Below, one piece after another: positions 11,676 through 22,598 of a DNA stretch of 22,599 nucleotides. The number at the start of each line of letters is the position of its first letter. Within the stretch, counting starts at the first letter, position 1. A model generated the notes under the pieces. It was not told where the DNA came from, searched no databases, and saw only the letters and a list, made by a program, of their open reading frames with translations. The translations under genes were made by a program, and so were the position numbers. Origin of the DNA: an uncultured virus (IMG/VR IMGVR_UViG_3300010429_001900) (lineage: Duplodnaviria; Heunggongvirae; Uroviricota; Caudoviricetes); the IMG/VR virus record IMGVR_UViG_3300010429_001900. The stretch is one strand, 5' to 3'.

Positions 11676-11867
11676 ATGGGGATCATCACCAAGGACGAAT
11701 GGGTGCGGCGCTACTCGACCAGGCTGGTCGAGTCTGGCAGCTGCGCCATGGCGGCCGCCTACGCGGCGGCCTGTGTCGCTGTCGAGCATGCCGACGACTG
11801 GGTCTCGCCCGAGGCCGCCGCGGACGAAGAGATCACCCGCAGCGCAGCGCAGGAGCCGACGGCGTGA
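11676..11867 (+). CDS. Hypothetical protein (63 aa)
   Basis: GGAGG RBS; GTGA overlap with the next gene. Confidence 0.6.
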   Translation: MGIITKDEWVRRYSTRLVESGSCAMAAAYAAACVAVEHADDWVSPEAAADEEITRSAAQEPTA

Positions 11868-12073
11868 GCTGGGTCGTCAATGTCTTCTGCTCGCGCCGGT
11901 CGATCGATCAGCTGATCGCGTCCAGGCCGGCGCAGAAGCAGGTCGACATCCGCATCGCGTCGCTGCGCAGGCTGATCGAGGACTGCGAGCGGTTCTTTCC
12001 GATGCCGGCCCTGGTATCGTCCTTGCAGGAAGACATCCAGCGCCTGCGCGCGCTGATCCCGGCGGAGCCATGA
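11864..12073 (+). CDS. Hypothetical protein (69 aa)
   Basis: GTG 11864 after AGGAG; ATGA overlap with the next gene. Confidence 0.55.
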   Translation: MSWVVNVFCSRRSIDQLIASRPAQKQVDIRIASLRRLIEDCERFFPMPALVSSLQEDIQRLRALIPAEP

Positions 12074-12345
12074 CGCACATCCTGTCCGCCAGCGATGCGG
12101 CCGCGCTGATGCGCTGCTCGGTCAAGACCATCGAGGACCGCGCGCGCACCGGCGACCTGCCGGGCCTGCTGTGGGGTGACGGGGGTTGGGTCTTCCCGAC
12201 CGAGGCCTTCTACGCCAGGATCAACGAGCTGGCGCTGGAGCAGGCGGCGCAGCGCCGCAAGCCAGTCGCGCCGACGGCGGTACTCGCGCAGCAGCGGGGG
12301 CTGGGTCGCAGGCGCCCTCCCCCGGCACTGCCGCGCGTGGCGTGA
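12070..12345 (+). CDS. Excisionase-like HTH (HTH_17/MerR-like) DNA-binding protein
   Basis: ILSASDAAALMRCSVKTIEDRARTGDLPG...GWVFP; convergent with the integrase. Confidence 0.8.
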   Translation: MTHILSASDAAALMRCSVKTIEDRARTGDLPGLLWGDGGWVFPTEAFYARINELALEQAAQRRKPVAPTAVLAQQRGLGRRRPPPALPRVA

Positions 12346-12393
12346 CGCCATGAGCGACAACCGACGTGCAACTCAACAATGAAGGGGTGACCC

Positions 12394-12576
12394 ATGGACA
12401 AGGAAATCATTGAACTGCTGAAGTCTCTGGCGGGCAACGCCGAAACGCTGGTGATCTGGTACATGGCGCTGGAGTTCGCCGGCAAAATCGTGTCGTGGGT
12501 CGGCGCCGTGGCCTGCCTCTACTGGTGCGGGCGCGGCGTGCGCTACGCGGCGGTGGCGGTGCGCGACAGCGCTTGA
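12394..12576 (+). CDS. Small membrane protein (60 aa)
   Basis: GGGGTG RBS; hydrophobic LVIWYMALEFAGKIVSWVGAVACLYW. Confidence 0.55.
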   Translation: MDKEIIELLKSLAGNAETLVIWYMALEFAGKIVSWVGAVACLYWCGRGVRYAAVAVRDSA

Positions 12577-12589
12577 TGCGGAGATTGCG

Positions 12590-12709
12590 ATGAAAGACAC
12601 GAACGCCATAGCCAGAGAGCAGCAGCGCCGCACTGCCGAGCTTGCCGCAGAGATGCGCGAGGCTCTGCCGTTGCGCGTCCGCTCGAATACTGGGTTAGGG
12701 CGCTGGTGA
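12590..12709 (+). CDS. Short ORF (39 aa) running through the truncated attC
   Basis: GGAG RBS; MKDTNAIAREQQRRTAELAAEMREALPLRVRSNTGLGRW, translated by hand. Confidence 0.35.
   Translation: MKDTNAIAREQQRRTAELAAEMREALPLRVRSNTGLGRW
12668..12700 (-). other. Truncated attC site (R''-L'' half only), end of cassette C
   Basis: Minus strand reads CCCTAAC-CCAGT-ATTCGAGC-GGACGCGCAACGG; no matching L'/R' arm found. Confidence 0.65.
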
Positions 12710-12724
12710 ACGAAGGAGGAAAAC

Positions 12725-12907
12725 GTGGACGGACTACCAAATTTCAACCCGCGCAGCGATGCGCTGAAGGCACGCGATGAGCCGGGCATGGGTGACGACG
12801 TTGCTTGCGAAAAGTGCGGCGCCGTGGCCCTGGACACCGGCCTAGAGTGCGACGAGTGCGGGCACGACAACTGGCAAGCCGTGACCGGCAAGCCGCGTGC
12901 GCCCTAA
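12725..12907 (+). CDS. Zinc-ribbon protein (60 aa), ORF of cassette C
   Basis: AAGGAGGA RBS; CEKC...CDEC; stop TAA lies inside the CCCTAAC core. Confidence 0.7.
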   Translation: MDGLPNFNPRSDALKARDEPGMGDDVACEKCGAVALDTGLECDECGHDNWQAVTGKPRAP

Positions 12908-13001
12908 CGCTGAGCTAACCGGACCACAAGGGCGCTGATGACCTACGAAGAAGCCACACTGCCGACCGCCCTTGTGGGTCCGGTTGAGCGACGTGTTATG
13001 C
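12902..13001 (-). other. attC site (100 bp) of cassette B
   Basis: Minus strand: GCATAAC-ACGTC-GCTCAACC-GGACCCACAAGGGCG-(32 nt loop)-CGCCCTTGTGGTCC-GGTTAGC-TCAGC-GTTAGGG, with two unpaired bases on the R''/L'' arm. Confidence 0.9.
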
Positions 13002-13654
13002 GCCCGGTGGAGTGCCGGACGGTGGCGGCCCTGTACGTGGAACCGAAGGGCTGCTATGTGGGCGTGCCAGGCGTTGACCCGTGGGACGAAGCGCGCGATG
13101 CGCGGACCTATCCAGGCCCGCACCCGGTAGTGGCGCACCCGCCATGCCAGCGCTGGGGTAGGTTCTGGCACGGCAGCACGCGCAAGCCGCACCAGTACAA
13201 GCTGGGCGACGATGGCGGATGCTTTGAGGCTGCGCTGCACGCGGTGCTGACCTGGGGCGGCGTGCTGGAACACCCGGCGCACAGCAAGGCGTGGGACGCA
13301 TTTGGACTGCGCAAGCCAGAGGCCGGCAAGGGCTGGCAGCGCAGCGACATGGGGCACCCGAGCAGCGGCTACTCCGTGTGCTACGTGGAGCAGGGGCACT
13401 ACGGGCACGCCAGCCGGAAGCCGACATGGCTACTGGCAAACGTGCGCCCGCTGACCTTGCCCGAACTGAACTGGACGAATGGCGAGCAACGCCTGCCCGC
13501 CTGGATGGTGGAGCGCTACGGCTACGAGAAGGCCAGGCGCATCGGCGTGGTGGCAATGGTGGGCGGGAAGAACAAGACCGCGATCCGCAACGCCACGCCA
13601 GAACCTTTCCGCGACCTGCTGCTTTCGATAGCGCGGCAGGCGCATAACGTTTGA
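12938..13654 (+). CDS. Divergent C5-cytosine DNA methyltransferase-like protein, ORF of cassette B
   Basis: AHPPCQ (motif IV-like), VLEHP (VI-like), RKPTWL (VIII-like), RNATPEPF (X-like); no FxGxG motif I seen. Confidence 0.6.
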   Translation: MTYEEATLPTALVGPVERRVMRPVECRTVAALYVEPKGCYVGVPGVDPWDEARDARTYPGPHPVVAHPPCQRWGRFWHGSTRKPHQYKLGDDGGCFEAALHAVLTWGGVLEHPAHSKAWDAFGLRKPEAGKGWQRSDMGHPSSGYSVCYVEQGHYGHASRKPTWLLANVRPLTLPELNWTNGEQRLPAWMVERYGYEKARRIGVVAMVGGKNKTAIRNATPEPFRDLLLSIARQAHNV

Positions 13655-13697
13655 GTTAAGCGGCGCCGAAGGCGTCCGCTTGAACGAAGGGTTGGGC
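13642..13697 (-). other. attC site (56 bp, canonical) of cassette A
   Basis: Minus strand: GCCCAAC-CCTTC-GTTCAAGC-GGACGCC-TTC-GGCGCC-GCTTAAC-TCAAAC-GTTATGC. The extra C and A give extrahelical G and T on the opposite strand. Confidence 0.95.
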
Positions 13698-13724
13698 GTC
13701 ACTGCCCGAAAACAGGAGAACGAA

Positions 13725-14015
13725 ATGCAAGTGACTGACGACATGGTTTCCCGCTTCCTGAGCTGGCAACTGCCAAAGACGTTTGCCCCGGACTGCGGGA
13801 TCAGCTTCGACGGCCGCAAGGACGACGAGTGGAACAAGAACAAGACATGGCCCGTTGGCACAAACCTGCTGACCGCGATCGAAGCGCGGGCGATGCTGGA
13901 GCATGTGCTTTCGGAGCCCGCCGTGGTGCCGCACGTCAAGACCGCTGCCGAGATGCGATACGACGCCGCGCACGATACGAGCTGTGTGGGCGCATTCGCT
14001 CGCGCTCGCCCGTGA
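13725..14015 (+). CDS. Phage-type hypothetical protein (96 aa), ORF of cassette A
   Basis: CAGGAG RBS; MVSRFLSWQLPKTFAPDCGISF...PVGTNLLTA motif, which I recognise from phage proteins of unknown function. Confidence 0.75.
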   Translation: MQVTDDMVSRFLSWQLPKTFAPDCGISFDGRKDDEWNKNKTWPVGTNLLTAIEARAMLEHVLSEPAVVPHVKTAAEMRYDAAHDTSCVGAFARARP

Positions 14016-14016
14016 T

Positions 14017-14053
14017 GCCCAACTTGTTCTAGGGCTCAGAATCGGCCTGTATC
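14017..14053 (-). other. attI-like site (resembles the class 1 attI1 simple site)
   Basis: Minus strand GCCCTAGAACAA-GTTGGGC versus attI1 GCCCTAAAACAAA-GTTRRRY. A GATACAG about 30 nt upstream sits near the DR1 position. It lies exactly at the start of cassette A. Confidence 0.65.
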
Positions 14054-14055
14054 CG

Positions 14056-14082
14056 GTTAGGGGCGCAAATTGCGCCCCTAAC
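14056..14082. repeat. Perfect 13-1-13 palindrome built from core-site-like GTTAGGG; possible terminator and/or recombinase binding site
   Basis: GTTAGGGGCGCAA-A-TTGCGCCCCTAAC, between convergent transcription units, 8 nt from the integrase stop. Confidence 0.7.
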
Positions 14083-14090
14083 ACTCGCGC

Positions 14091-15245
14091 TCACACCAGC
14101 CTGGCCGCCAGATCCTCGCCGCGCAGAGACGCGTAGCGCAGCGCCATCTGGGTGCTCGTCCAGCCCATGATGCGGCAGATCTCCAGGTCGCTGAAGACCC
14201 ACGCGCCGCGCTCGTCGCGCAGCGTGAACCAGCGGCAGGTCGCCTCGTGGCGCAGGTCGTGCTCGGTGAAGCCATCCACCCCGGCGTAGGCGAACAGCGT
14301 ATGGAAGCGCTGCGACAGCCGCCCGCTGGCTCGGCGCGCGTCCTCCTTGGAGCCATCCCAGTACGGGAACAGCAGCCCGATACGACCCTCGCAGTAGGCC
14401 TGCAGCTGCTCCGCCAGGCCGGGTCGCAGCGGCACCACGCGCGGCCTGGTCTGGCCGCGGGCGCCCTTGCTGCCTTCGATGCGGGCCACGCGGCGCGGCA
14501 GGTCGAGCTGGTCGACGCGCAGCTTGTAGGCCTCCGACAGCCGCATGCCGGTGCCCAGGATCAGGTCGAACAGCATCGCGAAGGGGGTGTCAGCAGGCCA
14601 CGGCCGCTCGCGATCAGGGCGCTTGACGCCTGCCAGCGCGTCGCGCACGCGCGCCTCCTCGTCCGGCAGCAGTCGGCGGTCGCGCGCGAGGTCGCGCCTC
14701 GCCTGCAGCCCGCGCTTGCCCAGCTCGATGACGTCGCGCTGGCTGTACTGGCTGTACCCGGCCGGCATCATGCGCAGCGCATTCGCTCGCGTCTCGGCGC
14801 GGCCCTCCAGGCGCTGGTGCCAGTCGATCACGCGGGCCAGCGCGCCCACGCGCTTGCGGATCGTGCCGGGCGCGAGCTGGCGCCGCTTCAGGCGCATGAC
14901 GTAGTCGTCGCACCACTTGGCGGTGACGCCGCTGACACGCAGGGCCTCGACTTCGCGCTGCTGCAGGATCGATGTCAGCAGCTCGTTGTCGCTGTCGGTC
15001 AGCCCTGGCGCGCCGTCGAGGTAGCCGCGCACCAGGGTTGCGACCAGCGCGTCGTCTGCGCTCTTGGCAGGCTGCGCCAGCAGCTCCGTTGGCACGATGC
15101 CCTGGTCGAGCAGCTCGCGCAGCTGCAGCCCGTAGGCGCGCGCGGCGGCCTCGTCGGCGAATGTGTGGAAGAACGGCCGCGGCAACAAGCGGTGCGTGAC
15201 CCGCAGCTGATGGCCGCCCGAGCGTTTCTGAACACTGATCGCCAT
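14091..15245 (-). CDS. int: Phage tyrosine integrase
   Basis: TGMRLSE (R), SKG (K), EHDLRHEAT (HxxR), IMGWTSTQMALRY (W, Y); GGAGG RBS before ATG 15245; adjacent to a tRNA fragment. Confidence 0.95.
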   Translation of the reverse strand: MAISVQKRSGGHQLRVTHRLLPRPFFHTFADEAAARAYGLQLRELLDQGIVPTELLAQPAKSADDALVATLVRGYLDGAPGLTDSDNELLTSILQQREVEALRVSGVTAKWCDDYVMRLKRRQLAPGTIRKRVGALARVIDWHQRLEGRAETRANALRMMPAGYSQYSQRDVIELGKRGLQARRDLARDRRLLPDEEARVRDALAGVKRPDRERPWPADTPFAMLFDLILGTGMRLSEAYKLRVDQLDLPRRVARIEGSKGARGQTRPRVVPLRPGLAEQLQAYCEGRIGLLFPYWDGSKEDARRASGRLSQRFHTLFAYAGVDGFTEHDLRHEATCRWFTLRDERGAWVFSDLEICRIMGWTSTQMALRYASLRGEDLAARLV

Positions 15246-15281
15246 GACCACCTCCACCCGACTTGACGGACAACCCCTGTC

Positions 15282-15530
15282 CGATTGGGTGGTAGCATGC
15301 TACCGATTTCTGGTAGCGGCGCAAGGATTTTTGCGGACTATTGGGTCAACCGTCCGGAAGTTCCGGAGAGTTGCCAAGCTCTATGTGGTTGATTTACAAG
15401 GAGTTTTCTGGAGGCGCGGAGCGGAGTCGAACCGCTCTGGACGGATTTGCAATCCGGTACGCATAGCTTATCGCCATATAAATCAACGACTTAATATATA
15501 CTCAGTTCATTGCTACTGATTGGGCTACTA
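15282..15530. other. attP region: arm-type repeats, IHF-type sites and tRNA-derived core
   Basis: Repeats TGCTACCGATT (15298-15308) and TGCTACTGATT (15511-15521). Palindromes GGTAGCATGCTACC (15291-15304) and TCCGGAA-G-TTCCGGA (15353-15367). IHF consensus WATCAANNNNTTR matched at 15481-15493, near-match at 15382-15394 (minus). AT-rich. Confidence 0.8.
15409..15456 (-). other. 3' portion of tRNA-Cys(GCA), attP common core (not a complete tRNA)
   Basis: Minus strand CGGA-TTGCAAA-TCCG-TCCAG-AGCGG-TTCGACT-CCGCT-CCGCGCC-T-CCA: anticodon arm, T arm and CCA present; D arm and 5' acceptor strand absent. Confidence 0.9.
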
Positions 15531-15531
15531 C

Positions 15532-16044
15532 ATGACCAACAATGAGCTACGGATGCAGGCCAAGGAGCGACGCTTGACCGCGGAGATGCTGCGTGCGGAG
15601 TTGTGCTTTGACTATGAGGCCGGCGTCTTCTACAGCTACAGGTCCGAGATGACAAGGACGGTGGGCTACAAGACGAGCGACGGCTACACCAACATCAGGC
15701 TGCTGGGTCACACGTACCGCGCCCATCGGCTCGCCTGGCTATACGACAAGGGGCGCTGGCCGCTGGGGCAGATCGACCATGCTGACAGGGACCGCTCGAA
15801 CAACCGGATCGAGAACCTGCGCGAGTGCGACCAGGCATTCAATATGGAGAACCAGGGCAAGGCCCACAAGGACTCGAAGTCCGGCCTGCTTGGCGCCTAC
15901 TTTCACAAGGCAAGGCGCGCCTGGTATTCGCAGATTCGGGTCAACAAGGAACTGCACCACCTGGGGACATTCCAGACGGCCGAGGAGGCGCATGAGGCCT
16001 ACCTCGCGGCAAAGCGCAAGGTGCACAAGGGGTGCGCGATATAG
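15532..16044 (+). CDS. HNH homing endonuclease with C-terminal AP2-like domain
   Basis: YRAHRLAWLY...IDHADRDRSNNRIENLR; SKSGLLGAYF...WYSQIRVN...HLGTFQTAEEAHEAY. Confidence 0.92.
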   Translation: MTNNELRMQAKERRLTAEMLRAELCFDYEAGVFYSYRSEMTRTVGYKTSDGYTNIRLLGHTYRAHRLAWLYDKGRWPLGQIDHADRDRSNNRIENLRECDQAFNMENQGKAHKDSKSGLLGAYFHKARRAWYSQIRVNKELHHLGTFQTAEEAHEAYLAAKRKVHKGCAI

Positions 16045-16301: not shown

Positions 16302-19300
16302 TCAGTCCGCCTTCAGCTTCTCCACGGCCCGGTTCAGCGCCGCCATCCGCTCGGTGATCTTCGCCTCGATGGCGACGATCTGCTCGCGCGGCGCGCCGGC
16401 CTTGACCAGCTCGCTCTTCTCCTTGCGCAGCTTCTGCACCTGGCGCTCGGCGTGGTTGGCCTGCGTGATCAGGTAGGCCTGCGGGTTCTGCATCTTCAGC
16501 GCCGCCACCTCGGCGGTCTTGCCCTCGCCCTTCAGGCCCTTGATCTCGGTCTCCAGCTCGTTCAGCCGCTCGACGTTGGCGTAGAAGGCGTTGCCCTCGC
16601 TGGCCTGGCTCTTGGCGTTGCCGACGAACCGGCCGACCAGCGGCACCTTGTACAGCGGCACCTCCTCGCCGCGCACCGCGCCCAGGCCGGTCTGCTCCAG
16701 CTTGGTCAGCTCGCGGCCCACGCCGCCCGTCACCTGCGACACCAGGTAGTCGATCTGGTCCGGCGTCGGGCTCAGCACGCCGGCGGTGTGCTTGGTGCCC
16801 CCGCTCAGGTAGTTGATGCCCTCGCTGATCAGCTTGCTCCAGCTCGACGCGGTGTCGCGCGCCAGGGCGTGCCCGGGGGTCGCCTTGTTGCTCGATTCGC
16901 GCGCGATCGGCCGGCCGCTCCAGTCGCGGTTCTCGGTCAGCGCCACCAGCGGGTCCAGCGCCGTCGGCGCCAGCGTCTGCATCGACAAGCCGGCGTTACC
17001 GATCGGGTTGAACGCGTCGGCCAGCGAGCCCAGCAGGCCGATGCCATGCTTGGCGGTGTCCTTGAACCCGCCCAGCGCCCAGGCCGTGGTCACGCGCCCG
17101 ATGTTCGGGATGACGTGCAGGCCCAGCGGCAGCGGGATCGTGACGTAGGTCTTGTTGCCCGTCGGGATGATCAGCGCCCGCTCGCGCGCCCACTCCGGCG
17201 GGTCGTCGTCGCTGAAGCCTGCGGCCGCCAGCGCCAGCGCCTGCATCGAGCCGAGCATCATGCCGCCGTAGACCACCTTCTTGCCCAGCGGCGACAGCCG
17301 CGCCGTCTTCGGCTTGCCAGGCTCCATCTCGAGCAGCACCGACCCCAGCCGGGCCGTGCCCTGCGCCGACGCGTTGAAGAACGCGTACAGCGCGCCGGCC
17401 TGCTGCGCCGCCTGGCCCTTGCGGTTGAAGTTGACCGTCAGGTTCTTCGCTAGGCTGGCCGCGCGCTCCTTGCTCAGGCCGGCATCGAGGGCGGTCTTGT
17501 AGGCCGCCAGGCGTACGCCGTTCTCCATCGCGGTGTTGTAGTCGCTCAGCCAGTCGAAGATCCACTTCGCTCCGCGCTGCGCGGCCGCCAGCGGCACCTT
17601 CAGTGTGCCGTTGGCGGTGAAGATCTTGCCCAGCTTCGAGTCCATCCAGGCGGTCGGGTCGAGCGCGCTCTTGATCGCCTCGGCGCGGTCGTTGCTGGTG
17701 GCGAACAGCTGGCGGAAGCCGGTCTGGCCGCCCACGCTCTGGAACTCCTCCCACAGCTGCGCCCAGGGCGAGCTGGCCGTGCCGCCCTTGCGGGTGGCGC
17801 GCAGGTCGCCGTAGATGCCGCGCAGCGCCGACATCGCTTGCTGCGCCACATCGGCCTTCTTGTCGGCGATCTCGGTCGTGCCCAGGTTGACCAGCGCGCC
17901 CTGCATGTCGCGCACCAGGTTGACCACACCGAACACCGGGTTGTACTGGGTGTTGATGCTGGCGAAGTAGCGCGTCAGCTTGGCGCTGGCGCCGAGCAGG
18001 CCCTCCAGCTGCGCCGCGTCCAGGTTCTTCAGCGACTCGGCCATGCGCATCGCGCGCTCGTTCTTCTCGTTGAAGACCACCGCGCGCTCGTGCACGTTGC
18101 CGTCGGCGTCCGTGATCTTGGTGACCAGCACGTTCGGCCGCTGCTTGTACAGGTTGTCCGGCCGGTCCTCCACCAAGCCGGTCTTCGGGTTGAAGACCTG
18201 CTCGCTGGGGACGTGCGTGTCCACCTGCCAGAACTCGGGGTTCGGGTTCGATGCGGCCAGGCCGAACAGCGCCTGCGACACGCGGTTCTTCTCGCCGCGC
18301 ACGATGGTGCGCTCGCGCTGCATGGCGATGTTGGCCAGGATGTCGACGACCTTGCGCGTCGAGCCGGTGCGGCTCTTGACTTCCTTGCCCTTGATGCTGA
18401 AGCCCTGACCGGTGCCGCCACCGCTGTGGCCACCCTCATCCTCGCGCATCAGCGGCACGTAGTGCTCGAACATGTCCGCCCAGCCCTGGACCTTGGCGCG
18501 CGACTCCAGCTGGTAGTCGACGAGTAGCTCGCGCGTCTTGGCCAGCATGCGGTCGACGTGCGCCGCGGCGGCCTCCAGCTTGCGCAGCTTGGTGGCGTCG
18601 GTCTCGGCGAAGTAGGCCTCGGCGTCCTGGTTCAGCATGCCGGAGCCGCCGTCCTGGATCTCCGGGTTGCGGCGCTTGATGACCTCGTTGGCCTCGCGCG
18701 CGTGGCGGGCGTGCAGGTACTCGTCCAGGTCCGAAATTTGTAGACCTTCTTCGGACATCTGGTCGATCAGCGGCTGCAGCTCGTGGTGCACGAAGTCCTC
18801 GGTGCGCTTGGCGGCGCGGCCGTGGAACAGCTCCTCCTGCAGGTACACGTCCAGGTCGTCGCGCAGCGTGCCGCCGGCGTCCTTCACGGCCTGGAGCACG
18901 CGCTTGGTGTCGACGTGCTTGTCCTGCAGCTTGTAGACGATGTCGTCGAACTTGCTGGCGCCAGGCGAGGCCCAGTGCTCCTGGGCGCTGTTGATCTCGT
19001 CGCGGTCGGCGCTCTTCGTGATGTCCTTGCTGCCCGGGTCGAAGCCGCCGTTGTTGCCGATGGCGGACTTGATCTGCTTGGCGTCAAAGGCAACGATGAT
19101 CTTGCTGCCGGCGATGTCGGCGATCACGCCGTCGTGACCTTGCGCGCGCAGCGTCTCCCACACCAGCCCCTGCGCCTTGCGATAGTTCGTCGCGCGCATG
19201 ATCGACTCAGGCCACTCGGTGTAGACCTTCGGATTCTTGATCGACAGGTAGGCCGGGATGACGCGCGAGGCGCTGTTCTTCGGATTGAACTTGTGCCCGT

Positions 19301-22300
19301 CGTACTCCAGCCCCATGCTGTCGTTCTCTACCGCGTACTGCGAGGCGCCCTCGGCCGAGTCCGTGAACCAGATGCCGTTCTTCGGTGCCCGGAACGACTT
19401 GAAGTCGACGTCGGAGCTGGTGCCGGTGTACACGCGCAGCGGCTCGCCCTGCTCATCAACGACCTTTGAGTCGCCGAACCAGGCTTTGAACTCCGGCGTC
19501 TCGGTCTGCGGGTCGCGCCCGGCGCTGAAGGCCACCCCTTCAGCCCGCCGAGTATCGGCCGGGATCGTGATGGAGTTGCCGCCCTGCTTCCACCCCTTGG
19601 TCGGGTAGTTCTGCGCTGCAGCATCGCCGGGTACAATGACCGTTGTCGCGGTCCGTGCGGGTTGGGCGCCGGGCTTCTGCCCGGTACGAGGCATCGTGCC
19701 TCTGCCTGTAAAGTCCCGTAGGGCCGCGGCTTCTTTGTCGGCCATCCAGACCACGTTGCCTTGGCGCAGCTGGTCCAGCACGTAGCGCATCGACTCGTTG
19801 CGGCCGAACATGCTGCGCACGTCATAGACGTCGCCGCCACCCTCCTTGCTCTGGCGCACCGCCACCAGCAGCGGACGGCCCTGTTCGTCGCGCGCATCCA
19901 GCAGCGCCTGGTGGCGGGTGATCCTCTGGCCGTTGCCGTCGACGTCCTCGTTGCGGATCATCACGCGCGGGTGGGCCATCAGGTCGGCCAGGCGCCCGAT
20001 CATGCCGGCCGTCACCTCCTCGTGGCCCGCGCGGCGCAGGTGCGACACCAGCCGGCGGTCGATGGTCACCGGCAGGCGGCTGTCCAGACCTGCCATCAGC
20101 CAGGCGGGGTGCGGCAGCGAGGGCGAGACCTTCTTGTAGGCGTCGCGCGTGTGCTGGCCGGCCAAGGCCGCCTCGGCCCAGGATTCGAGCGCCGGGTCGT
20201 TGCGGTAGACGCTGAACAGCGGCAGGCCGTCCGCGGCTTTCTCACGCATTGCCGGGGTCACGTCGAAGCCGGGTTGCTTCCCGTAGCTGCGCGTCAGCTC
20301 GCGCGCCGCCTCCATGGATTCCTGCCAGGCCGACTTCGTGCCGTCAGGGTAGACAACGCGCACGCCAGAAGGCCCTCTCTCGAAAGAGAAGCGGCCTTGC
20401 CCGGTCGTGTTCAGCGGCATCGGCGCAAGTGCCCCGCCGCCCACCTTCTTCAGCACGTCGCGCAGCACCTGCGGAACGATCTGGTCGTAGAAGGCGCGCA
20501 TGCCGTGCGCCTCGACCTTTAGCCCGTCGCCGACCAGCTCCCCCTCCGCCGCCGCAAGGATCTTTGCGGCGACCTCTTTCCCGACCACCTCGTCGAGATC
20601 TTTGCCGTGAAACTCGTTGTTGGCGATGATGGCGCCTGTTTCGCGGCTCACGGTCAGGCCGATCGCGTCGCCTTGATGCGGGTAGACGGCGACGGAGCTG
20701 AACCCATCGCCCTCCGGCTCCCACCTGATGCCCTTGAGCTGTTGGTCCAGCGAAAAGCGCTCGGCCGACTGCGCGCCGGTGACGAACGCCACCTTGTCGT
20801 AGCCGCCGTCGACGGCCATCTTGATCACGCGCTTCAGGGCTAGGGCCAGCCATTTGTCGGTCTTGTCCACGAATGGGGCGCGTGGCACGCCGTCGCCTTT
20901 GGCGCGCGCTGCCTGCATTTCGTTGTAGCTCTCGACGGCCTTGCGCATCATGTCGGCGTCGGTGTCCCAAGACTGCAGCGTTCGGCCGCCGGCCCATTCG
21001 CCGTTCTGGTCCCGCATCATCAGCTGGCCGTTCTTGCGTTCGACGGTCCAGCCATCAGGCAGCTTGTCTACCGGCGCGGGCGCGGGCTCCTGGAAACCCT
21101 TCTTCTTCGCGGCCTGACCCCAGTCGCTCTGGATCTCCTCAACGAACAGCACCTTCTTGCCGTCCGTGTCGACGCGATCATTCAGCCGGATGTGGGCGAG
21201 GATGTTGGGCTGGTCCCAGTGGTTGGATTTGTAGGTTGCCGGCTTGTCGGCCTCGTTCTTCTTCTTCGCGCCTACCACCAAACCGCGGAGCATGTCACGC
21301 ACCAGCGGTGTGCCCTTCTTGTAGACGCCACTGCCGACGCGCGCATCGGTCATGCGCAAGGCGTCTTCAACGGAGCCGGCTTCGTCAACATAGCCGATAG
21401 CAGCATCGACCGTCTCGGCAGCGAACCCCATGTCGTCAATGAACTGGCCGCGCTTCTCGCGCATGCGGTCGGCGGTCCACACGAGCGGCTCTGGGCCTGC
21501 CTTCGCCGGCAACGTCAACAACACCTCGCGGTAGTTGGTGCCGCCAGGCAGGGTGTAGTCGCCGTACTTGGTGGGCTTCGCGCTGTCCGGGTACATGTTG
21601 GCGAAGGCTTCGTTCGCGACCTGGATGTAGTCCCGCTCATCAGTGAACCCGTAGTCCTCCTTCAGCTCGGCCCGACTCTGGCTGTGCAGCTCCATCAGGA
21701 AGTCCTGCGCATCGCGCACGGTCTCGAATTCCTGGTGCAGATCTCTGTCGCCCAGCACCACCTCCTCGACCTTCACCCCGTTCTCGCCAACCCACGCGGC
21801 CAGCTCGTCGCGCGACAGCTTGTCCTTGCCGCGCAGCTGCAGGTAGTCCTCGATGCCGGACCAGGTGATCTCGTCCTGCTTCACGCCCATCTTCGCGGCG
21901 TTGGCCTTGAGCCACTGCGCCCACTGTGCGGCGGCCATGTCGCCCAGGCGTGCGGGGGCTTGCTCGATGGCGCTCTGCAGCTGGCTGTACCAGGCGCGCT
22001 CGGTGGACTTGGTGATGTCGGGGTTCGATGCGTCGAACGTGCCCGCGTTGCCCGTCGCCGACTTCAGTTGCCCGGGATCGAAGGCCATGTAGGTGACGGC
22101 GCGGCCGCCGTTGCGCCGGTCCTCGTTGAAGATGGCGCCGTCGTAGCCCAGCTCGCGCAGCGCGTCGACGAATTCGCTCTTGCCGTTGTCGTCCGCGTCG
22201 AAGAGTTCCCAGTGGTTCTGGATGTTGTGGATCATGCGCGTGCTGACGCCGCCCTTCTCCAGGGCCTCCTCATCGACTTCGCTCAAGCCCTCGCGCAGGT

Positions 22301-22598
22301 CCAGCGGCTGCTCGAGCTTCAGGTAGACCTGCATCACGTTCTGGCCGTCACCGCTGCGCAGGTACTCCTGCGAGAAGTCGGCGTCTGGGGTCACGAAGAT
22401 GCCCGCGCGCTTCACCTCAACGTCGCCCAGCAGGCCGTAGTTGTTGGTCGTGGCGCGGCCGCTCTCGAAGCGGCTGATGTCGCCGCGGGTGGAGTGGTAC
22501 ATCACAAGCGGACGGCCCTTGTCGTCGACCGCGTCGCTGTTGCCGAACCAGGCCCAGAAGTTCTTCAGGCCCTGCTTGGTGCCGGAGATCTTCTGGCC
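16302..22598 (-). CDS. Giant polyvalent phage protein (>2090 aa, 5' end outside window): two ART-PolyVal-like modules, EEIQSD-motif domain, MuF-C/PBECR-like module, LPD38-like C-terminus
   Basis: Frame is open to the window edge (KNFWAWFGNSDAVDDKGRPLVMYHST). Second module PEFKAWFGDSKVVDEQGEPLRVYTGT. Both end in QxKSAxGNxGxFD...DITKS. C-terminal KNLTVNFNRKG, LYAFFNASAQG, IPLPLG, ENRDWSGRPI. Confidence 0.88.
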   Translation of the reverse strand, partial: GQKISGTKQGLKNFWAWFGNSDAVDDKGRPLVMYHSTRGDISRFESGRATTNNYGLLGDVEVKRAGIFVTPDADFSQEYLRSGDGQNVMQVYLKLEQPLDLREGLSEVDEEALEKGGVSTRMIHNIQNHWELFDADDNGKSEFVDALRELGYDGAIFNEDRRNGGRAVTYMAFDPGQLKSATGNAGTFDASNPDITKSTERAWYSQLQSAIEQAPARLGDMAAAQWAQWLKANAAKMGVKQDEITWSGIEDYLQLRGKDKLSRDELAAWVGENGVKVEEVVLGDRDLHQEFETVRDAQDFLMELHSQSRAELKEDYGFTDERDYIQVANEAFANMYPDSAKPTKYGDYTLPGGTNYREVLLTLPAKAGPEPLVWTADRMREKRGQFIDDMGFAAETVDAAIGYVDEAGSVEDALRMTDARVGSGVYKKGTPLVRDMLRGLVVGAKKKNEADKPATYKSNHWDQPNILAHIRLNDRVDTDGKKVLFVEEIQSDWGQAAKKKGFQEPAPAPVDKLPDGWTVERKNGQLMMRDQNGEWAGGRTLQSWDTDADMMRKAVESYNEMQAARAKGDGVPRAPFVDKTDKWLALALKRVIKMAVDGGYDKVAFVTGAQSAERFSLDQQLKGIRWEPEGDGFSSVAVYPHQGDAIGLTVSRETGAIIANNEFHGKDLDEVVGKEVAAKILAAAEGELVGDGLKVEAHGMRAFYDQIVPQVLRDVLKKVGGGALAPMPLNTTGQGRFSFERGPSGVRVVYPDGTKSAWQESMEAARELTRSYGKQPGFDVTPAMREKAADGLPLFSVYRNDPALESWAEAALAGQHTRDAYKKVSPSLPHPAWLMAGLDSRLPVTIDRRLVSHLRRAGHEEVTAGMIGRLADLMAHPRVMIRNEDVDGNGQRITRHQALLDARDEQGRPLLVAVRQSKEGGGDVYDVRSMFGRNESMRYVLDQLRQGNVVWMADKEAAALRDFTGRGTMPRTGQKPGAQPARTATTVIVPGDAAAQNYPTKGWKQGGNSITIPADTRRAEGVAFSAGRDPQTETPEFKAWFGDSKVVDEQGEPLRVYTGTSSDVDFKSFRAPKNGIWFTDSAEGASQYAVENDSMGLEYDGHKFNPKNSASRVIPAYLSIKNPKVYTEWPESIMRATNYRKAQGLVWETLRAQGHDGVIADIAGSKIIVAFDAKQIKSAIGNNGGFDPGSKDITKSADRDEINSAQEHWASPGASKFDDIVYKLQDKHVDTKRVLQAVKDAGGTLRDDLDVYLQEELFHGRAAKRTEDFVHHELQPLIDQMSEEGLQISDLDEYLHARHAREANEVIKRRNPEIQDGGSGMLNQDAEAYFAETDATKLRKLEAAAAHVDRMLAKTRELLVDYQLESRAKVQGWADMFEHYVPLMREDEGGHSGGGTGQGFSIKGKEVKSRTGSTRKVVDILANIAMQRERTIVRGEKNRVSQALFGLAASNPNPEFWQVDTHVPSEQVFNPKTGLVEDRPDNLYKQRPNVLVTKITDADGNVHERAVVFNEKNERAMRMAESLKNLDAAQLEGLLGASAKLTRYFASINTQYNPVFGVVNLVRDMQGALVNLGTTEIADKKADVAQQAMSALRGIYGDLRATRKGGTASSPWAQLWEEFQSVGGQTGFRQLFATSNDRAEAIKSALDPTAWMDSKLGKIFTANGTLKVPLAAAQRGAKWIFDWLSDYNTAMENGVRLAAYKTALDAGLSKERAASLAKNLTVNFNRKGQAAQQAGALYAFFNASAQGTARLGSVLLEMEPGKPKTARLSPLGKKVVYGGMMLGSMQALALAAAGFSDDDPPEWARERALIIPTGNKTYVTIPLPLGLHVIPNIGRVTTAWALGGFKDTAKHGIGLLGSLADAFNPIGNAGLSMQTLAPTALDPLVALTENRDWSGRPIARESSNKATPGHALARDTASSWSKLISEGINYLSGGTKHTAGVLSPTPDQIDYLVSQVTGGVGRELTKLEQTGLGAVRGEEVPLYKVPLVGRFVGNAKSQASEGNAFYANVERLNELETEIKGLKGEGKTAEVAALKMQNPQAYLITQANHAERQVQKLRKEKSELVKAGAPREQIVAIEAKITERMAALNRAVEKLKAD

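Follow-up and report, generated by a model that had tools for sequence, protein, structure and literature searches.

Can a short site directly behind a phage integrase gene act as the attI of an integron in a phage that carries no integron integrase? Integrons are viewed as bacterial gene-capture devices on chromosomes, plasmids and transposons. The question arose from a 22,599-nt stretch of DNA (the window) of an uncultured Caudoviricetes phage, which is part of a linear 45,099-nt IMG/VR virus record with an estimated completeness of 58% (CheckV). An initial annotation of the window had flagged a 37-mer on the minus strand as an attI1-like site, functional or mimic, at the head of a cassette array. 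The 37-mer is present as described: it is the exact reverse complement of 14017-14053 and sits 38-74 nt 3' of the integrase stop (14091-14093).

Genomic context of the site

The plus strand of the window carries early phage genes, encoding RecT, a YqaJ-type exonuclease, RdgC, SSB and an HNH endonuclease, and then an excisionase-like HTH_17 gene (xis; 12070-12345, plus strand). The product of the latter matched PF12728 (E = 2.4e-5, below the Pfam cut-off) and the excisionase family phrog_1840 (E = 8e-4). The xis gene is convergent with a gene for a 388-aa phage tyrosine integrase (14091-15257, minus strand; PF00589, E = 3e-13; phrog_1 integrase), and it forms the far-side border of the array region. 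A second HNH gene lies to the right of the integrase gene. The right part of the window is taken up by a gene (16302-22505, minus strand) for a 2067-aa polyvalent protein with ART-PolyVal, MuF_C and LPD38 domains. Rfam at the gathering threshold gave no matches in the window, and ARAGORN found no complete tRNAs there.

The phage integrase was considered as a candidate IntI and rejected, as it scored 30.5 bits against TIGR02249 (cut-off 265). No IntI gene was found across the 45,099 nt of the record, which is 58% complete, and any activity at the flagged site must therefore come in trans.

On the minus strand, we read 15409-15458 as the 3' portion of a tRNA-Cys gene that includes the acceptor stem, the T arm and the GCA anticodon loop. 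Contigs of all four metagenome runs described below pile up at 15404-15460, and their loose ends continue unlike the window. This 50-nt fragment is likely the attP core of the phage integrase and would mark its host target. The flagged site was rejected as the attP of the neighbouring integrase, because the tRNA-like core is on the other side of the gene.

When metagenome contigs were searched with the window integrase, two records of the same phage were found (L127 and L128), with complete or almost complete identity over 9164 nt, together with one further weak match. As a single query, the integrase gave no match among viral contigs and one weak, unrelated match among genome contigs.

A cassette array begins at the flagged site

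The slot between the convergent integrase and xis genes holds a cassette array. We searched it with a home-made attC covariance model, which was built from six short sites in loci of the same phage group and gives rough E-values. Long attCs were left out of the model because MAFFT misaligned them. The model recovered 133 sites in independent IntI-bearing loci. Behind the array head it detected two attC sites; together with a half site, they all lie on the integrase strand. The 56-nt attC A (13642-13697, minus strand), which was one of the six sites used for building the model, scored 68.6 bits on the minus strand and 6.9 bits on the plus strand. The 100-nt attC B (12902-13001, minus strand), which was independent of model building, scored 31.8-38.2 bits. 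Since the attCs of the window read on the minus strand, the array begins at 14023 and runs leftward. With two attC sites and no IntI within the record, the window is classed as a CALIN.

The half attC (12672-12700, minus strand) consists of an R'' core, CCCTAAC, and an L''-like arm; 19 of 27 positions are identical to the left arm of attC A. Its right arm was undetectable, and it gave no match to the attC model. Its R'' is complementary to the R' of attC B, and the array's decayed far end lies at this half attC.

Cassette 1 (13648-14022, minus strand), bounded by the cassette signature and the attC model, contains an ORF of 96 aa (13725-14015, plus strand) that is antisense to the attC top strand. 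Cassette 2 (12908-13647, minus strand) contains an ORF of 218 aa (12998-13654, plus strand) that matched phrog_12600 over residues 7-216 (E = 1.8e-59), and its DNA resembles genes of Pseudomonas and Caulobacter phages. A third, incomplete unit is represented by a 60-aa ORF with two CxxC pairs (12725-12907, plus strand; taken from the ORF list), for which no family match was found. The ATG of the cassette 2 ORF lies within the R'' core of its own attC B (12995-13001). The last two codons and the stop of this ORF fall in the attC of the neighbouring cassette (13642-13654), so that its C-terminus depends on the adjoining cassette. Two small ORFs of 60 and 39 aa occupy 12394-12709, between xis and the decayed array end; neither had a family match, and the 39-aa ORF overlaps the half attC.

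Each cassette opens with a 7-mer that is exactly complementary to the R'' core of the attC belonging to it. At the array head, GTTGGGC (14023-14017) pairs at seven of seven positions with GCCCAAC (13697-13691), the R'' of attC A. In eight arrays of the phage group, 17 of 21 junction/attC pairs showed the same 7/7 complementarity, and the other four missed one base. The recombination junction on the minus strand is G14023|TT14022-21; the first six bases of cassette 1, TTGGGC (14017-14022, minus strand), complete the GTTGGGC that starts with G14023. As expected of an attI in general, the array head meets the first cassette at G|TTRRRY. An attI also generally adjoins the 5' end of intI; here the neighbour is the phage integrase gene.

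The polarity of the array agrees with that of known integrons. Among 80 IntI-bearing viral loci (the best 80 of at least 490), attC hits at E ≤ 0.01 were opposite intI in 133 of 133 cases, and 132 of them were upstream of the intI start, the exception being in L149. A class 1 plasmid integron gave a single attC model match, which was opposite intI1 and shared its strand with the cassette genes. The attCs of the window phage's intI-bearing relatives likewise come after attI, on the strand opposite intI. The much higher scores of both window attCs on the integrase strand and the reference hits thus bear out the placement at the head of the array and the polarity that the initial annotation had proposed.

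The head of the array is not an attC site

The initial annotation had seen no canonical attC arm at the head, and the attC model agreed: at 14017-14062, with filters off, it gave 4.6 bits (E ~3). An attC at the head was therefore rejected, as the real attC sites scored 68.6 and 31.8 bits. The stretch 14017-14063 had a weak fold and no attC-like hairpin.

Between this stretch and the integrase gene, 8 nt after the integrase stop, lies a perfect palindrome (14057-14083) with 11-nt arms and a 5-nt centre, which begins with GTTAGGG and ends with CCCTAAC. Its predicted fold is -15 kcal/mol. The GTTAGGG, present as a single copy, is 59 nt upstream of the crossover. The palindrome is probably the upstream part of an attI-like region. 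A terminator at this position was rejected, because the palindrome has no T-run and a terminator scan reported nothing.

The junction carries a class 1-like core

The attI1 ending and the DR1 position quoted in the initial annotation were checked on the plasmid record NZ_OQ747075.1 (L130). In this record, attI1 ends with GTTACGC, then 25 nt ending GCCCTAAAACAAA, then G|TT. DR1 (GTTACGC) and DR2 (GTTATGG) of class 1 attI1 are located ~32 and ~51 nt upstream of the crossover.

The 15-mer GCCCTAGAACAAGTT had one occurrence in the window at up to three mismatches, with 0.22 expected, and at least one occurrence was seen in 22 of 100 shuffles. Taken alone and unanchored, the attI1-like motif is within chance. 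Among viral contigs, 44 exact matches to the 15-mer were found, and their flanks shared no sequence with the window. For an anchored comparison, the 15 nt ahead of every GTT were scored against the attI1 core from NZ_OQ747075.1. The 15 nt ending at G14023 scored 9 and ranked first among the 407 GTT sites of the window, with a runner-up of 4. A score of at least 9 was reached by two of 23,366 background GTT sites in 160 fetched phage loci, and one of the two is the genuine class 1 attI1 of L194. Anchored on the junction, the likeness to the attI1 core is exceptional and well beyond chance.

The attI1-like core of the window, GCCCTAGAACAAG (14023-14035, minus strand), ends with the crossover G. 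Compared with the simple-site core of class 1 attI1, GCCCTAAAACAAAG|TT, 12 of 13 window positions match, one is a mismatch and one further base is absent (a gap); the likeness covers ~13 nt, and a junction-anchored comparison over 20 nt was within noise. An anchored 20-nt search found no second site resembling the window head, and BLAST of the 74-nt head against ~160 fetched loci (~1.1 Mb) returned nothing below E = 1. End-to-end alignment of the window head with attI1 gave a score of 24 (p = 0.016). Neither DR1 nor DR2 was found at the class 1 distances in the window head: the 7-mer at the DR1 distance, 30 nt upstream, is GATACAG, which agrees with DR1 at four of seven positions. The proposed attI1 likeness is limited to the ~13-nt core and does not extend to DR1, DR2 or the wider 20 nt.

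The window head thus resembles attI1 in being a non-attC array head with the crossover G|TT, in its core (GCCCTA-A/G-AACAA(A)G) and in the inverted repeat formed by the bases flanking the crossover. It differs from attI1 in that it has no adjacent intI and no conserved DR1/DR2, lies behind a phage integrase gene and has a spacer that is one base shorter. The core also differs from ...GAATTTAAG|TT, the dominant core of phage-borne attIs. Many of these attIs (in L133-L210) have a GTTAKGCGACA repeat and an inverted TGTCG, followed by GAATTTAAG|TTRRRY.

Some related phages carry intI in the same slot

We aligned 40 integrase homologues, and the query made from them retrieved 80 viral loci. In most of these relatives, the excisionase-like gene directly abuts the integrase stop. 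In seven of the 80 (L049, L051, L055, L056, L057, L062 and L063), an IntI-like gene is convergent with the phage integrase gene. All six IntI proteins tested passed TIGR02249 with 378-460 bits (cut-off 265), and that of L055 is 55% identical to IntI1. The intI of L062 (1891-2866) matched as two overlapping pieces and may be frameshifted. L051, L055 and L056 have an intI that starts a few bases past the end of the phage integrase gene; in L049, L057, L062 and L063, the two are separated by the excisionase gene. The attIs of the relatives share a layout: the intI start, ~12 nt, a GTTAnGC-type repeat, 24-34 nt with an inverted repeat, and G|TTRRRY.

Arrays of attC sites without intI were found in the window, L047, L069 and L111. 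The head of L069, directly after the integrase stop, aligned with the attI of the intI-bearing L062 (score 37; 0 of 2000 shuffles), an arrangement that would be expected if nothing but the intI reading frame had been removed. The head of L047 (5160-5193) is a GGCCAAC...GTTGGCC hairpin followed by 8 nt and G|TTAGGC; a GTTACGC lies 24 nt beyond.

We compared the window head with these sites. It occupies the same integrase-xis slot with the same polarity as the attIs of L049, L051, L055, L056, L057, L062, L063 and L069, and it shares with them a GTTAnGC-type repeat, an inverted-repeat stem, a short spacer and G|TTRRRY. It differs in having 52 nt from the repeat to the crossover and a class 1-like core, whereas the related attIs have 24-34 nt and a ...GAATTnAAG core. 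Its sequence likeness is significant to L069 only: aligned over the palindrome/inverted repeat, the two heads gave a score of 24 (p = 0.006). The likeness to the L047 head was not significant (p = 0.19). Relative to L069, ~28 extra nt (14024-14052) separate the palindrome from the crossover in the window, and the class 1-like core falls inside this stretch, which has no counterpart in L069. The extra stretch may represent a further attI core, what remains of an older event, or a piece of a longer attI.

In a quick tree, with modest support near the window, the window integrase grouped with those of L069, L057, L062, L050, L051 and L055 (aLRT 84-87), and all 10 integron-bearing loci of this type fell in one 37-row clade (aLRT 98). 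Because the window groups with intI-bearing loci, loss of intI is the simplest history, and we infer that the window phage descends from an intI-bearing ancestor. The initial annotation had pointed to the unusual position of the site, 3' of a non-IntI integrase gene. The position is real; a new arrangement is improbable, since the relatives have intI between the phage integrase and attI. The hosts of the lineage are apparently of the Burkholderiales type, in wastewater and digesters.

Independent samples break at the junction

Assembled contigs from four public runs were compared with 11800-15700 of the window at ≥85% likeness. Run X4, a wastewater sample of a different study, contained a 19,202-nt contig (depth 30) that matched 14021-15700 with 17 differences in 1680 nt. 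To the left of this boundary, 1749 letters unlike the window replaced 12259-14020 (1762 nt), and the contig matched anew inside the excisionase gene, where there were 40 differences over 194 nt. Divergence was higher along the whole left arm of the contig, another 251 nt of which showed 24 differences. The boundary coincides with the TT of the G|TT junction and so lies no more than two bases from the predicted crossover. The initial annotation had anticipated relatives that are conserved rightward of the site and vary leftward, and run X4 shows this pattern, being ~99% identical from 14021 to the right and unlike the window to the left. The replaced segment is close to the window's in length and could hold the same genes, diverged beyond the 85% threshold; diverged arrays, and not different cassettes, would then have been swapped.

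In run X6, a 362-nt contig matched cassette 1 at 13718-14023 (38 differences) and continued with 56 nt unlike the window head. Run X3 yielded identical fragments of the same phage only, and run X5 yielded short fragments only. As judged from these assembled sequences, it is difficult to account for boundaries at the crossover in two independent samples unless site-specific exchange took place here.

An attI-type site that may be served in trans

Our best explanation, to which we assign a probability of about 0.6, is that the head is the attI-type site of a phage-borne integron that lost its intI and is served in trans. The temperate phage carries a small array of two complete cassettes and one decayed unit, and its integrase-xis slot looks like that of the intI-bearing relatives with intI missing; the loss would have left the attI 8-68 nt past the end of the phage integrase gene. 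An integron integrase acting in trans, encoded by a host integron or by one on a co-resident phage, would bind the double-stranded site, for which a left box GCCCTAG, an A-rich spacer and a right box GTTGGGC are predicted. At G14023|T14022, the enzyme would carry out a single-strand exchange with the bottom strand of an attC in its folded form, and this exchange would insert or remove cassettes. Present recombination activity at the head site is an inference, for which the breakpoints at 14021 and 14023 in contigs of runs X4 and X6 are indirect evidence.

The breakpoints also bear on a second account, in which the head is an attI by descent that has been dead since intI was lost, and the breakpoints either predate that loss or reflect homologous exchange between phages. 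The absence of intI in cis, the decay of the far array end and the missing DR1/DR2-like sites at the usual spacing would all be consistent with a dead site, and the left arm of the run X4 contig, more diverged over its whole length, fits a single exchange of a large segment. The integrase side of the same contig, in contrast, is 99% identical, which makes the exchange recent relative to the divergence of the integrases, and the contig likewise has its head directly behind the integrase gene, with no intI where one would canonically lie. Homologous exchange at random would also rarely put a breakpoint within 2 nt of the predicted crossover. We therefore regard a fossil attI as rather improbable.

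Alternatively, a host IntI could have placed the first cassette into an ordinary GTT of the integrase-xis spacer, the attI1 likeness then reflecting the preference of the enzyme. Integron integrases are reported to be able to insert cassettes outside att sites (10.1101/2022.09.11.507474). The window resembles the insertions described there in that the GTT to which a cassette is joined does not belong to a canonical intI-attI unit, and its head is unlike the usual attI of the lineage and has no relatives at BLAST level. It differs from them in having true-attI relatives in the same place and a sign of reuse. Such an insertion is difficult to reconcile with arrays in the same place in L047 and L069, with an L069 head that is clearly homologous to a true attI and with relatives that have intI here. 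In addition, the palindrome-plus-core layout parallels the attIs of the relatives, and the junction breakpoint in a near-identical phage requires repeated use. An insertion at a secondary site is accordingly an unlikely origin of the array head.

A decayed attC, of which the right end (L' arm, spacer and R') survived a deletion of the left arm, is a still poorer candidate, and we consider it very unlikely. The low score of the model (4.6 bits) included no partial right-arm match, the palindrome has GTT and AAC at its open end, the reverse of an attC, and nothing folds between palindrome and junction; these observations stand against the A-rich spacer that also precedes G|TT in attC right arms (e.g. 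TCAAACG|TT), the resemblance of the palindrome end CCCTAAC to an R'' core and the half attC at the other array end. A phage feature unrelated to integrons, be it an attP core, an arm site of the integrase or a terminator, is scarcely credible despite the strong hairpin directly behind the integrase gene, since the contigs of four runs pile up and then diverge at the tRNA-Cys fragment (15409-15458), the contigs of prophage-excised relatives end 200-400 nt upstream of the integrase gene, and the cassette signature would be left unexplained.

The preferred reading, an attI-type site served in trans, would bear on how phages acquire genes. Across a whole group of related phages, the integron platform sits at one constant place within the lysogeny module, in versions with and without intI, and an independent sample shows that the intI-less window still has a sharp exchange boundary at the attI-like site. 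Were the site active in trans, temperate phages could take up and carry cassettes without encoding the integrase. Owing to the class 1-like core, cross-talk with the most widespread integron integrase could be tested directly.

Comparison with published phage integrons

Phage-borne integrons have been reported as rare and mostly incidental (PMC9892861). Among the 10,705 phage genomes surveyed by Qi et al. (2023; PMC9892861), three complete integrons, one In0 and 17 CALINs are reported. The same study describes a Shewanella prophage that has a CALIN with its own attI, and shows that IntI1 can use attC sites of virulent phages (PMC9892861). Like the CALINs described there, the window has at least two attC sites and no nearby intI in a phage genome; unlike them, its array lies in a recurrent slot of a lineage, keeps an attI-like head and has all its cassette genes antisense. 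In a 2026 study of Burkholderia gladioli prophages, integrons were reportedly sought and none were found (PMC13366799). In the open-access literature, we found no account of a phage lineage with an integron in its integrase-xis module, or of uniformly inverted cassettes in phages.

IntI relatives were encoded by at least 490 stretches in IMG/VR, some of which may be host flanks of prophage calls. Among the best 80 of these loci (L131-L210), 48 also carry attC hits, which are the 133 hits opposite intI described above. One viral contig, L194, carries a true class 1 integron. Compared with the published count for isolated phages, integrons seem far more frequent in viral contigs.

Cassette genes of the phage group are inverted

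All cassette ORFs with GC3 support were opposite the attC top strand, in the window (12725-14015) as well as in L047, L049, L055, L057, L062 and L069. They run the same way as xis and intI, which is the reverse of ordinary cassettes. The exception is L111, which has just two weak short ORFs, one per strand. From their orientation, the inverted cassette genes would be expressed from the phage operon and not from an integron promoter. The uniform inversion raises a separate question, that of the origin and expression of the cassettes.

A broader reading is possible, and we put it forward tentatively. The temperate-phage lineage might use the integron in its integrase-xis module as a swap-shop for accessory genes, with the inverted cassettes served by the early operon and the class 1-like attI of the window active in trans, for example with the class 1 enzyme that is common in wastewater and digesters. 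If so, phage genomes would be linked with the general cassette pool. Homologues of the cassette 1 protein adjoin attI in three IntI-bearing loci (L142, L150 and L177).
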